Virus record (IMG/VR): IMGVR_UViG_3300006925_000146
Span: 1 to 24,192 of that record
Origin: a virus
Taxonomy: Duplodnaviria; Caudoviricetes
Strand: one strand, 5' to 3'
DNA: 24,192 nucleotides
Numbering within the stretch: the stretch's first letter is position 1; every line of letters starts with the position of its first letter. A model generated the notes under the pieces. It did not search any database, had not been told where the DNA came from, and was given only the letters and a program-made list of their open reading frames with translations. A program made the translations under genes and the position numbers. This document shows positions 3,255-11,619 of this stretch, in pieces.

Positions 3255-3275
3255 CTATAGGGGAACCTTCGAGAT
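3255..3275 (-). promoter_or_regulatory. Phage RNAP promoter, copy 1 (ATCTCGAAGGTTCCCCTATAG)
   Basis: 21-bp exact repeat with 11599-11619; ends in CTATAG like T7 promoters; overlaps the RNAP stop codon and precedes the replication genes. Confidence 0.85.
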
Positions 3276-4933
3276 TATGCGAAAAAGTAATCACTTAACA
3301 AGACCTCCTCTATATCCAGCGTACCTCGCTTTGGTGGTGGTGGGATAACTGCTTGATCCCCTAATGAAGTAACTGCGTGTGTGTAGAGATTTAGCAGTAC
3401 GTCATGTTCTTTATACATCTCGACAAAAGCCTCTCTTAACTTCATGTTTAATAAAGGCATGTTGGGAGAATGTGTGCCGTAGCTGTCGTGAACCATTGCA
3501 AAATCCACAACTCCTTCTTTTAAGCATTTGTCTATTGTAAAAGTTAATGCCGCAGCGTCCAATGAATGAACAAAGTTAGGACTGCTTCCCGACACGCTTT
3601 TCTTCTTGTCTATTTCGTTTTCAAGTGGCTGGTTGTAATTCAATTTAACAACGGAGCCGCTTAAATGAGTCTTAATGCGTAACTTGTTCGTGTTGATGTA
3701 CGCCTGTCGCACTAATAACCCTGTAGGAGTTATCCACTCAAATGGTTTATTGTGAGCACAATACAGTTTAGCAATACTTTTAATATAATTCATTACTTCA
3801 TGTGCTGATTGTATGACTTCGTTGATTGCTTGCCAGACAAAACCTGACAAGTAACGTGCAGGTCTGAAGAAATCATCATCCCAAGGGTTATTACCCATAT
3901 ACTTATCAGACAAAGCTTCAGCTATATAAGCACTACAAGCGTGACGTGTACCACTGTAAGGAACAATCATTACAGGTCTCTTGCATATTTTCCTATCAAT
4001 ACCCATTCGTAGTAATTGCCTAGCCAACTCTGTATCTTCTTGCTCTAATAGCTCCGTTGCTCTCTTTGCTACATCAGCATAAATGTCCTGGGGTTGTTTA
4101 CTAGGTGTAAGGTTTACTGAACGCCCGCCCTCAGAGTCCCTGAGCATCGCAGAGAGGTGTTGCAAGCCATTACATGAGCCATCACTTGCACATGGTAAAC
4201 GTGTTTCATATGGCTTCCCGTTAGCTCTGGCGATGTTGTATTCTGCCCACTCTTTGCACCACGCTAAAGCTTGCCAAGGTTTGTCCGCTTCTTGCCACCA
4301 CTTACTACCTAGCGGATCATTATAAACAGCTATGGCATTGTCTGCATTCATGTACGCCCACAATTCACGATCTTCTAAACTTACTTTATCTACTCCAAAT
4401 ACATTAGCTCCGTGTATGGCTAACCATTGGGCTTCCTCGGAGGTCGTGATAGTAGCTGTATTAGCAAACTCTAGTAATGCTTTAGAGTAATCAGCATTCT
4501 GTGGGGACAAAAAAGATTCTACTGGATACTTACGCCCCCTGAAATCTAACTGCCACACGTACCACATGTTCCCTATGTCTTTGTATTCCTCTGCTATCTG
4601 GATAGTTCTCTCGACCTGAATACGTTTAGACATGCTTTTATTGTTGATGGTGTGTACCTTGTTACGGGCAGCTTTAAATGCTTTAAACTGTAACATCTCC
4701 TCTTCGTTGAGGTGTTTAGGTTCTTTACTAAAAGGGTACTTAGGTAAATCTAAGTTATCTCTTGGAGGTAAACCCACCCATTCTTGCCCACTGTCCCAAC
4801 AAGTACGCAAGACATCAACCACAAACGCATTCACTTGCCAAGGAGTGTGTTGTAGAGCGTTAACACATTGATACTCTAATGAGAGGTCTAGCTCTTCAAT
4901 CTTAGCTATGTAATCTTTAGCTGCTTTTCTCAT
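3275..4933 (-). CDS. gp1: T7-like RNA polymerase, C-terminal catalytic part (thumb, palm, fingers)
   Basis: DFRGR, motif A DGSCNGLQH, motif B RKICKRPVMIVPY, motif C HDS, C-terminal YFFA. ATG overlaps the upstream TGA (ATGA), with GAGGG 7 nt upstream. Confidence 0.93.
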   Translation of the reverse strand: MRKAAKDYIAKIEELDLSLEYQCVNALQHTPWQVNAFVVDVLRTCWDSGQEWVGLPPRDNLDLPKYPFSKEPKHLNEEEMLQFKAFKAARNKVHTINNKSMSKRIQVERTIQIAEEYKDIGNMWYVWQLDFRGRKYPVESFLSPQNADYSKALLEFANTATITTSEEAQWLAIHGANVFGVDKVSLEDRELWAYMNADNAIAVYNDPLGSKWWQEADKPWQALAWCKEWAEYNIARANGKPYETRLPCASDGSCNGLQHLSAMLRDSEGGRSVNLTPSKQPQDIYADVAKRATELLEQEDTELARQLLRMGIDRKICKRPVMIVPYSGTRHACSAYIAEALSDKYMGNNPWDDDFFRPARYLSGFVWQAINEVIQSAHEVMNYIKSIAKLYCAHNKPFEWITPTGLLVRQAYINTNKLRIKTHLSGSVVKLNYNQPLENEIDKKKSVSGSSPNFVHSLDAAALTFTIDKCLKEGVVDFAMVHDSYGTHSPNMPLLNMKLREAFVEMYKEHDVLLNLYTHAVTSLGDQAVIPPPPKRGTLDIEEVLLSDYFFA

Positions 4934-5709
4934 GTATGCACCCTCACGAAAGGTAACTTATTTATATGGTCCGAGTAGTAACCACCGCCCCAGAACCCTT
5001 CCCAGTCTTTAGGTTGCACAATACATGGGCTATATCTCGGCAACGCTACTGAATTGGTATCGTTAAAAGCTTTTATCCAAGCTGCTGTCTCTTCTGTGGG
5101 GGCGACATGCCAAACTGTTTTGTTTCTGTTAATACGTTTATCTAATTTAACTATGCCGGTGCTGCTTATAATAAGATCAATCATTTTAATTCCTACATGA
5201 ACACGTTCTTCATTAGTCCAGTTTGGTATTTCTATATCATCCAACTTCATCTTGTGATTAAGCCCGTGACGTTTATGATCAAAGCCTTTATCTGATTTCT
5301 TGTTAGCTTCTTTGATCATGTTATCCGCTACACCATCTTGAAGTTTAAGCCATTGCTCTAAGCGTTTTTGAGTTTCTATTTGTACCCCAATGTTACGGGC
5401 TACAGTCAGCAATGTCGTCTTGGATGCTATGTTATCAATTAAACTAATTAAAGACAAGTAGGCTACCTGATCAGCCTTCATATTCTGTATAAGTTTTTTG
5501 GTAATATTTCTGTTTTGTGTTTTATCTTTAACTAAAGCTCTAATAGCTTCTTCAACTGGCTGCACAATCCCCTTGATGATAGTACGTCCGTGTTTTGTTC
5601 TCGACCCTAAATCTTTTTGTAGAAGATCATCTAGTTGTTTATTAAATCTATCTATTCCTGACTGAACCATTTGATATTCTAAATCAATTTGCTCGTTGAT
5701 TGTTGCCAT
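4930..5709 (-). CDS. gp1: T7-like RNA polymerase, N-terminal (promoter-binding) domain as a separate ORF
   Basis: Ends in PCIVQPKDWEGFWGGGYY...FVRVHT, matching T7 PCVVPPKPWTGITGGGYW...LVRTH; also WTNEERVHVGIKMIDLII. Start placed at ATG 5709 (GAGGT SD) rather than 5760, which would run into an attP arm site. Confidence 0.88.
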   Translation of the reverse strand: MATINEQIDLEYQMVQSGIDRFNKQLDDLLQKDLGSRTKHGRTIIKGIVQPVEEAIRALVKDKTQNRNITKKLIQNMKADQVAYLSLISLIDNIASKTTLLTVARNIGVQIETQKRLEQWLKLQDGVADNMIKEANKKSDKGFDHKRHGLNHKMKLDDIEIPNWTNEERVHVGIKMIDLIISSTGIVKLDKRINRNKTVWHVAPTEETAAWIKAFNDTNSVALPRYSPCIVQPKDWEGFWGGGYYSDHINKLPFVRVHT

Positions 5710-5745
5710 GTCTATACCTCTATACGGTAGATAAATTGGAGTATA

Positions 5746-5959: not shown

Positions 5960-6940
5960 CTATTTACCCTCTAGTATGTTGATGCCATCTAACAAACCTT
6001 CAGGTGCTAGGTAAGCATACTTCATTGTTGTTTGGATGTTGCGATGGCCCATCCACTCTTTAACTTTAAATATATCCATGCCGCCCATGACTAATTTACT
6101 ACAGCAAGTACTACGGAATGTTTTCCATATTGCATCTTGCATACCTGTACGATCTCGCAACCTTTTCCAGCGCCTTCTAAACTGTCTTGGGTGTTTATCG
6201 AACGGAGTGCGTTCAACACACTCTAAGGTACGTTGTGTTGCCGGGAGCAGTAAATCGTCACCGTTCTTGCGGTCAGGTATCATCAGTCCCCATTTGTTAC
6301 CAATAGGTATGGGTGTTGGATCAAACTTCAACAACTCACTAGCTCTCATACCTGTATCAAGGCTAACAACTGCTGCATCGTGAATATAATCCTCACCCAT
6401 TTCTAAGAGAGTATCAAGTAATAGCTTCTCCTGTTCTGGTCGATACCATTTAACAGTGTGGTTGGCTTCCTTCTGTCTGTGTATCTTAGGCAACTCAGAT
6501 AATTGATTGTTATCAACTGCCATAAGTAATCCCTGACGTAAGCAAGAGAGGTGACGGTTGATTGTACCGCCCGCCCTGCCTTGCTTCTTCATCATCTGTA
6601 CATAACCTTTGATAAGTTGAGTATCTATCTTACTTACTGGTGTTTTGTGTCCGAACCACTTAGTTAAACACTTCATGGTACTTGGCACATGATCTTCGCT
6701 CTTTGTACCTTCCCATAATGTTTCGTATGCTTCGTCTAGTGACTTACCTAGCGACCAAGCCGAAGATACTCCCGTATCGGAGTTAATATGTGATGGTGGT
6801 AGCAGACCACGTTTGAGGGCGTGTCTTGCCTGTGCTTCCCATAATTCAGCATCAGCTAAATTAGGAAAAGACTTTCGAGCCTTGTGTCCATCTACTGACA
6901 CGTACGCTTGGTAAGATTTACCTCTAGGTTGTACACTCAT
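5960..6940 (-). CDS. int: Tyrosine integrase
   Basis: N-terminal arm-binding-like domain; TINRHLSCL; TGMRASELL (catalytic R); KTFR in the HxxR position; MGHRNIQTTMKY (H and catalytic Y). Confidence 0.93.
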   Translation of the reverse strand: MSVQPRGKSYQAYVSVDGHKARKSFPNLADAELWEAQARHALKRGLLPPSHINSDTGVSSAWSLGKSLDEAYETLWEGTKSEDHVPSTMKCLTKWFGHKTPVSKIDTQLIKGYVQMMKKQGRAGGTINRHLSCLRQGLLMAVDNNQLSELPKIHRQKEANHTVKWYRPEQEKLLLDTLLEMGEDYIHDAAVVSLDTGMRASELLKFDPTPIPIGNKWGLMIPDRKNGDDLLLPATQRTLECVERTPFDKHPRQFRRRWKRLRDRTGMQDAIWKTFRSTCCSKLVMGGMDIFKVKEWMGHRNIQTTMKYAYLAPEGLLDGINILEGK

Positions 6941-11502: not shown

Positions 11503-11572
11503 ATACTTAAAGTATACTTAAAGATATTCTTTAAGATACCTTAAGTATACTTAAGTATATACTATAGTATAT
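11503..11572. repeat. AT-rich palindromic CTT(A/T)AAG repeat array (origin or packaging region)
   Basis: About six CTTAAG/CTTAAAG/CTTTAAG-type units; perfect 16-bp palindromes CTTAAGTATACTTAAG (11540-11555) and ATATACTATAGTATAT (11557-11572). Confidence 0.75.
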
Positions 11573-11598: not shown

Positions 11599-11619
11599 CT
11601 ATAGGGGAACCTTCGAGAT
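11599..11619 (-). promoter_or_regulatory. Phage RNAP promoter, copy 2 (phiOR-like)
   Basis: Identical to 3255-3275; predicted start GGGAAGA; located after the terminase near the genome end. Confidence 0.85.

Follow-up and report, generated by a model that had tools for sequence, protein, structure and literature searches.

A T7-type RNA polymerase encoded by two overlapping genes across a clade of marine phages

T7-type RNA polymerases (RNAPs) are textbook single-subunit enzymes. Here we describe a T7-type RNAP that is divided between two genes in an uncultured, marine, T7-like phage of the Caudoviricetes (IMG/VR record IMGVR_UViG_3300006925_000146, positions 1 to 24,192). This whole stretch of 24,192 nt, which represents ~59% of a genome, is referred to below as the window. 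An earlier note on the sequence had proposed that the RNAP is split over open reading frames (ORFs) of 259 and 552 aa, and both were recovered on the minus strand (Table 1). The small ORF (N-ORF) matched the Pfam domain RPOL_N (PF14700; E 1.9e-15, 57.5 bits versus a cut-off of 30.1), and the large ORF (C-ORF) matched RNA_pol (PF00940; E 6e-105, 352 bits versus a cut-off of 22). No domain beyond these two was detected when both ORFs were scanned against Pfam. The note had also described the catalytic motifs as all intact, and this agreed with the BLASTP alignment of C-ORF to T7 RNAP, in which DFRGR, DGSCNGLQH, KRPVMIVPYSG, HDSYGT and the C-terminal YFFA were aligned. In T7 numbering, we take the key residues to be D537 (motif A), K631/Y639 (motif B) and D812 (motif C).

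Together, the two products comprise 811 aa (259 + 552), versus 790-830 aa in unsplit relatives, implying that no dimerisation or intein domain was added when the protein was divided. The T7-like single-subunit family is defined by one polypeptide, whereas two ORFs in different frames were found here; judged by sequence, the enzyme is a homologue of this family and yet not "single-subunit". N-ORF most likely starts at ATG 5709 and begins with MATINEQ. An alternative start at ATG 5760 would give 276 aa; however, ATG 5709 was preferred because a Shine-Dalgarno-like AGAGG lies 7 nt upstream of it and no such motif precedes ATG 5760. In addition, a form of 259-260 aa was the shortest one common to relatives. 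Counts of sigma-70 promoters and terminators around the RNAP genes were not above those in shuffled sequences, and neither type of signal was found between the two ORFs.

At the junction, the minus strand reads GTG AGG GTG CAT ACA TGA, with the stop codon overlapping ATG AGA, and C-ORF is in the -1 frame relative to N-ORF. The ATGA stop-start overlap and the GAGGG located 7 nt before the ATG were thus present as the note had described them. Occurrence of the split in other phages, a check suggested in the note, was examined in IMG/VR. We identified 79 loci with 65-100% identity to the large ORF; 10 of these were left out as the match stopped short of the large-ORF start, and 69 were kept. None of the 69 had a continuous reading frame. 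An ATGA overlap was found in 63, GTGA in one and a 1-nt TGATG overlap in four, and the remaining locus (L035) had no overlap. Over 28 nt, 41 different junction sequences occurred among the kept loci. In the 59 loci with a complete small ORF, this ORF spanned 248-320 open codons. L035 is the sole locus of the split clade without overlap; its junction looks locally duplicated, and its two ORFs are 19 nt apart in different frames.

A second subclade was reached through two distant small subunits (P0245 and P0234), which were followed to DNA and yielded 20 loci. Their large subunits were 48-57% identical to that of the window, and all 20 were split (17 ATGA, 1 TGATG and 2 TAATG). Overall, the split architecture was observed in 89/89 related loci that covered the junction, at 48-100% identity over the large ORF, and none was fused into a continuous ~810-aa ORF. 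The stop and start codons overlapped (ATGA, GTGA, TGATG or TAATG) in 88/89 loci, and the large ORF was in the -1 frame in 88/89, with L035 as the exception. A start codon was present at the junction in 89/89 (ATG in 88, GTG in one). These observations, made across many different junction sequences, indicate that the two-gene T7-like RNAP is real.

Protein clusters gave a similar picture. Stand-alone small subunits formed 107 clusters (38-100% identity, mostly 254-285 aa), and all those that reached the C-terminus ended at the same V-R-x-H/R motif. Among the best 120 of 4456 large-subunit hits (E <= 1e-50), which were 56-89% identical, 117 clusters were 552-556 aa and three were 489-502 aa long; no ~800-aa form was present among these 120. 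No longer, fused protein matching the small subunit scored in the protein search, which is weak evidence. One of the short large-subunit homologues (P0365; 489 aa, 74% identical) carries the source name "hypothetical protein [Porticoccaceae bacterium]", which may point to a marine gammaproteobacterium as host unless it is a binning artefact.

The note had allowed for a 1-nt assembly error at the junction. This possibility was rejected, given the 89/89 split relatives and independent assemblies of the same region: Logan contigs from four marine metagenome runs covered the junction without indels, and the assembly of an independent metagenome run (X3) bridged positions 4600-5283 with 0 differences and 0 indels. 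The view of the note that the genes are not decaying also held. For both ORFs, dN was 0.06-0.11 and dS was >=1.7 or saturated, giving dN/dS of ~0.03-0.05 or lower, far below 1. These values show strong purifying selection on both ORFs.

More distant RNAPs served as controls. Relatives of this kind in IMG/VR were continuous across the junction in 43/44 evaluable loci (L125 was left out of this set, four loci were cut by ends and L099 was broken). Prophage-like RNAP copies in bacterial genomes, detected by a profile search that yielded 63 loci at 29-49% identity, were continuous at the junction in 61/62 evaluable loci. No close relative was found in 185,579 species genomes. In Halomonadaceae, the RNAP match of two copies, in Salinicola (L225) and Billgrantia (L216), spanned ~2.1 kb versus the usual 1.6 kb; L225 appears to be an interrupted or decayed prophage RNAP gene because the stretch carries 19 stop codons. 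Among GenBank phages, blastn gave only a 53-nt match and no close relative. The nearest GenBank phage RNAPs by tblastn had at best 41% identity to C-ORF and 32% to N-ORF, and these matches appeared to be single ORFs (frames were checked by hand for two records).

To place the split among T7-like RNAPs, representatives at 50% identity were examined. Of the best 150 hits, nearly all were 770-910 aa long and matched from about residue 250-325 onwards; P0002, P0004 and P0005 (554-557 aa) started at the junction. DNA for these three and for two further representatives, P0001 and P0003, was not found in IMG/VR, which returned only relatives of 32-40% identity, and the split or fused state of all five was therefore read from protein length and N-terminus alone. 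In a quick maximum-likelihood tree of 61 sequences, all 26 DNA-verified split forms fell into one clade with an SH-aLRT value of 98. This clade also contained the short P0002, P0004 and P0005 as well as P0001 and P0003, which are unsplit ~800-aa RNAPs (50% identical) with junction peptides unlike those of split forms. The position of P0001 and P0003 could stem from re-fusion or from an artefact of tree building. The approximately unbiased test did not reject a tree in which all split forms make up one clade (p 0.431), so that we claim neither re-fusion nor repeated splitting; one origin of the split is compatible with the data. In addition, a 538-aa RNAP (P0014) that starts 17 residues past the junction was placed outside the split clade, among unsplit RNAPs. 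Either another split of independent origin or truncation of the gene call could explain it.

The site of the cut was mapped on T7 RNAP (NC_001604). Residues 6-259 of N-ORF aligned to T7 residues 35-301 in BLASTP (26% identity) and residues 5-258 to 34-300 in phmmer, and C-ORF aligned from T7 297/301 to 883 (32% identity in BLASTP). The N-ORF end ...VRVHT lies opposite T7 ...VRTHS301. The break thus falls at T7 301/302, in keeping with the placement given in the note (LVRTH/SKK, about residue 300), and the junction adds ~5 residues relative to T7. The small subunit corresponds to T7 ~30-301, that is, the promoter-binding/refolding module, the hinge and a 34-residue tail, and the large subunit corresponds to T7 ~302-883, with thumb, palm, fingers, specificity loop and all catalytic motifs.

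The T7 hinge has been assigned to residues 258-266, with a pivot at 267-268, in a study that also describes the N-terminal domain of T7 RNAP as needed in elongation (PMC3961267). In the alignment, T7 P266 corresponds to P224 of N-ORF. Seven residues (P224, P228, P233, W236, G242, G243 and Y244) were invariant in 38 small subunits, and most invariant positions of this alignment lay within the 34 residues after P224. Folded alone, the small subunit gave a mean pLDDT of 80.6 and a pTM of 0.72, with a beta-hairpin at 187-204. The tail at 221-259 was poorly predicted (block means of 60, 69, 67 and 43), as expected for a segment that docks on a partner. When this template-free model was superposed on the N-terminal domain of T7 RNAP, TMq reached 0.82. 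By structure, TMq was 0.73-0.82 on T7 elongation complexes (best chains) versus 0.41-0.47 on initiation and apo structures.

Several features of the junction bear on how the second gene may be translated. In 35 of 43 distinct junctions, the Arg codon located 10-12 nt upstream of the large-subunit ATG was AGG and thereby formed GAGG or AAGG; AGG accounted for 22.7% of the 1726 Arg codons elsewhere in both ORFs. The same position was occupied by AGG in 20/20 loci of the second subclade. Met1 of the large subunit was invariant in 21/21 aligned sequences, and the unsplit P0001 and P0003 have no Met at this position. No conserved slippery heptamer or homopolymer was found at the junction across at least 41 distinct junctions, and the last sense codons of the small ORF varied widely (HT, HA, WT, WA, WS, HGL, HG, RR, RS, RK, TN and AH). 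Programmed frameshifting is therefore unlikely.

Directly downstream of the large-subunit gene is a 21-nt promoter-like element, which occurs a second time in the window. The note had counted two identical cognate promoters; the copies are indeed exact 21-nt repeats, their promoter role being inferred. Both end in the core ...CCCCTATAG, which contains the T7-type TATAG, and none of 100 shuffles gave any match. Most of 42 distinct relatives also had a similar element directly after the large-subunit gene, within the 70 nt that follow the stop codon, with a sequence that varied by subclade (e.g., ...CCCCTATAGC, ...CCCCATAAGC, ...ACCGTTAAGC and ...ACCTATTGTGC). This is the pattern that co-evolving polymerase-promoter pairs would show, and it suggests that promoter specificity has diversified among the split forms.

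Table 1. Features of the split RNAP locus and its surroundings in the window
Feature	Positions	Strand	Remarks
RNAP small (N-terminal) subunit gene	4930..5709	minus	259 aa + stop; ORF, Pfam RPOL_N, BLASTP to T7
RNAP large (catalytic) subunit gene	3275..4933	minus	552 aa + stop; ORF, Pfam RNA_pol, BLASTP to T7
ATGA stop-start overlap	4930..4933	minus	TGA of small-subunit gene and ATG of large-subunit gene
Shine-Dalgarno-like GAGGG	4941..4945	minus	7 nt upstream of large-subunit ATG; built on AGG Arg codon
Shine-Dalgarno-like AGAGG	5717..5721	minus	7 nt upstream of small-subunit ATG 5709
Promoter-like 21-nt element, ATCTCGAAGGTTCCCCTATAG	3255..3275	minus	starts on last base of large-subunit stop codon; upstream of gene for single-stranded DNA-binding protein (SSB)
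Second identical 21-nt copy	11599..11619	minus	downstream of terminase large-subunit gene (PHROGs); beside tandem repeats
Tyrosine integrase gene	5960-6940	minus	directly upstream of RNAP genes, 250-nt gap

All long ORFs of the window are located on the minus strand. In the order of this strand, the integrase gene is followed by the 259-aa ORF, the 552-aa ORF, the 21-nt element and genes for a T7-type SSB, an endonuclease and a primase/helicase. An integrase next to the RNAP genes is also seen in temperate marine T7-like phages. Neither a tRNA, which was looked for in the window, nor an attP site was identified there. Genes annotated by Pfam and PHROGs comprised, besides the phage's own RNAP, those for SSB, endonuclease, primase/helicase, terminase, tail fibre and internal virion protein. 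An own RNAP, genes on one strand, and T7-like replication and structural modules are the gene content of Autographiviridae, although the nearest GenBank phage RNAPs were as distant as noted above. In addition, two 33-nt tandem direct repeats were observed at 11503-11568, which lie with the second 21-nt copy between the terminase and the early genes. These repeats probably mark the genome end, with the contig running through the joined ends (late genes, ends, early genes).

Natural heterodimers of the T7 RNAP family have a precedent in phage N4. N4 RNAPII is made from two adjacent genes (gp15 and gp16) whose products represent non-overlapping parts of T7 RNAP, and a review reports heterodimers only in N4-like phages among >500 homologues (PMC4496689). 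The subunits described here likewise align to non-overlapping parts of T7 RNAP. The note had placed the split of N4 RNAPII further downstream, and our alignments confirm this. Residues 226-268 of N4 gp15 (269 aa) corresponded to C-ORF 121-162, and residue 8 of gp16 to C-ORF 169; these two matches were weak (E 3e-4 and 3e-7). The N4 cut thus maps to C-ORF ~163-168, about 165 residues downstream of the present one. According to the same source, gp15 reaches through the thumb and DX2GR, leaving palm and fingers with motifs A-C to the large N4 subunit (PMC4496689), whereas here both the thumb and DFRGR are in the large subunit.

The two enzymes differ in other respects as well. N4 RNAPII is described as having truncated N-terminal and thumb domains, a total of ~673 aa and a requirement for the cofactors gp1 and gp2 (PMC4496689). 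In contrast, the present enzyme totals 811 aa and its small subunit covers T7 34-301 in full. The gp15 and gp16 genes are 47 nt apart in NC_008720 and do not overlap. N4 RNAPII also co-occurs with a virion RNAP (vRNAP); the ORF list of the window contained no giant vRNAP-like ORF, and PHROGs named none among the 18 window ORFs scanned. On this comparison, the enzyme of this clade does not belong to the N4 RNAPII type and would act as a split T7 RNAP.

T7 RNAP has also been divided in the laboratory. In the source data of Fig 2B of Segall-Shapiro et al. 2014 (Mol Syst Biol 10:742; PMC4299498), 36 in-frame active bisections fall into five seams, one of which consists of exactly residues 301 (mean 793 arbitrary units, AU) and 302 (530 AU) as the last residue. 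As reported there, the bisected enzymes are active without added interaction domains (PMC4299498). The natural cut described here is at the same position, and in both systems a ribosome-binding site and a start codon drive the second fragment. However, the engineered splits are laboratory constructs of T7 RNAP with few added residues, obtained by screening, whereas the natural pair has ~5 extra junction residues and has co-evolved over a deep clade. T7 RNAP nicked by proteolysis near 172-179 is likewise cited as retaining activity (Ikeda & Richardson 1987; Muller 1988, as cited in PMC4299498), but this nick is post-translational, is not genetically encoded and lies in the N-terminal domain ~120 residues upstream of the present cut. 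Compared with single-chain T7 RNAP (PDB 1CEZ, 1QLN and 1MSW), the phage enzyme shares the fold, all motifs and a promoter-like element with a TATAG core. It differs in having two polypeptides, in the absence of T7 residues 1-~30 (as in the unsplit P0001) and in the promoter sequence.

Taken together, the T7-type RNAP of this clade is encoded by two genes, and the two products very probably form a stable heterodimer that would function in the manner of single-chain T7 RNAP. Ribosomes ending at the small-subunit TGA would restart at the overlapping ATG, aided by the GAGG 7 nt upstream, and such termination-reinitiation coupling would yield near-equimolar subunits. The small subunit would carry the promoter-binding/refolding module and the hinge, and its C-terminal tail (~226-259, or T7 268-301) may dock permanently on the large subunit, which would supply thumb, palm, fingers, specificity loop and catalysis. 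The pair is predicted to recognise the 21-nt ...CCCCTATAG elements and to pass through the T7 initiation-to-elongation transition unchanged. Some observations weigh against parts of this model. CGA is used instead of AGG in seven distinct junctions, and the AGG enrichment is a count that ignores shared ancestry of the junctions. GAGG overlaps with the codons of V-R-x-H, a conserved peptide shared by unsplit RNAPs, so that coding accounts for part of the conservation of the motif. The promoter role of the 21-nt elements was deduced only from their TATAG core, repetition and position. In addition, the engineered 301 split was ~3x less active than the 179 split (793 versus 2488 AU; PMC4299498), and the devices described in that study used the seams at 67, 179 and 601 rather than the one at 301.

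Would the small subunit instead behave like a sigma factor, binding for promoter recognition only and being shed or exchanged at promoter escape while the large subunit elongates alone? The missing covalent link would then be functional. This subunit does contain the whole T7 module that binds the promoter and refolds, it is predicted to fold by itself, and the link is missing in every member of the clade. However, the cut is not at the hinge: both the hinge and the anchor segment, that is, the invariant P224 and the next 34 residues, stay on the small subunit, and this disfavours a detachable factor. The 34-residue segment is conserved and its poor prediction in isolation is as expected for docking; the T7 N-terminal domain is described as required in elongation too (PMC3961267); and the window contains only one small-subunit gene. 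We consider a sigma-like cycle unlikely.

Still less probable is recoding at the junction, by transcriptional slippage or a programmed -1 ribosomal frameshift, into a single full-length chain. The large ORF is in the required -1 frame in all loci but L035, and a fused product would be as long as unsplit relatives, but the lack of a conserved slippery site, the differing last sense codons and the start codon that is placed exactly at the overlap in every locus, with an invariant Met1 that P0001 and P0003 lack, all speak for separate translation of the large ORF. Two further explanations appear negligible. Insertion of a single base ahead of the ATG would join the two frames, as expected for an assembly error or a recent pseudogenising frameshift; however, both are excluded by the same architecture in every locus from many metagenomes down to 48% identity, the lack of indels in independent contigs, the low dN/dS and the intact motifs. 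Split inteins are used to rejoin engineered T7 RNAP halves (PMC4231753), but post-translational ligation of the two products is opposed by the absence of extra sequence: the summed length is that of unsplit RNAPs, Pfam detected only RPOL_N and RNA_pol, and only ~5 residues were added at the junction. A stable heterodimer thus remains the reading that we favor.

In the full-text literature, with subscription journals outside coverage, we found no published account of a natural RNAP divided at this position. N4 RNAPII, a pared-down enzyme with its cut at a different place, is the only natural heterodimeric T7-type RNAP that we found described. The present study reports a full-size T7-type enzyme that is divided in two throughout a deep, well-sampled clade of marine phages, represented by 107 small-subunit and at least 120 large-subunit clusters. 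Its natural cut coincides with one of the five seams that T7 RNAP tolerated in an unbiased laboratory screen (PMC4299498). The pattern is worth recording because gene callers and annotation pipelines will label the two genes as fragments. For synthetic biology, the clade offers split-RNAP pairs that have co-evolved in nature and whose promoter-like elements have diverged. For structural biology, it provides a natural test of how important the covalent tether is for the refolding from initiation to elongation. If the small subunit were a sigma-like factor after all, the clade would represent a natural intermediate between single-subunit and factor-dependent RNAPs, comparable to mitochondrial RNAP with TFB2M.

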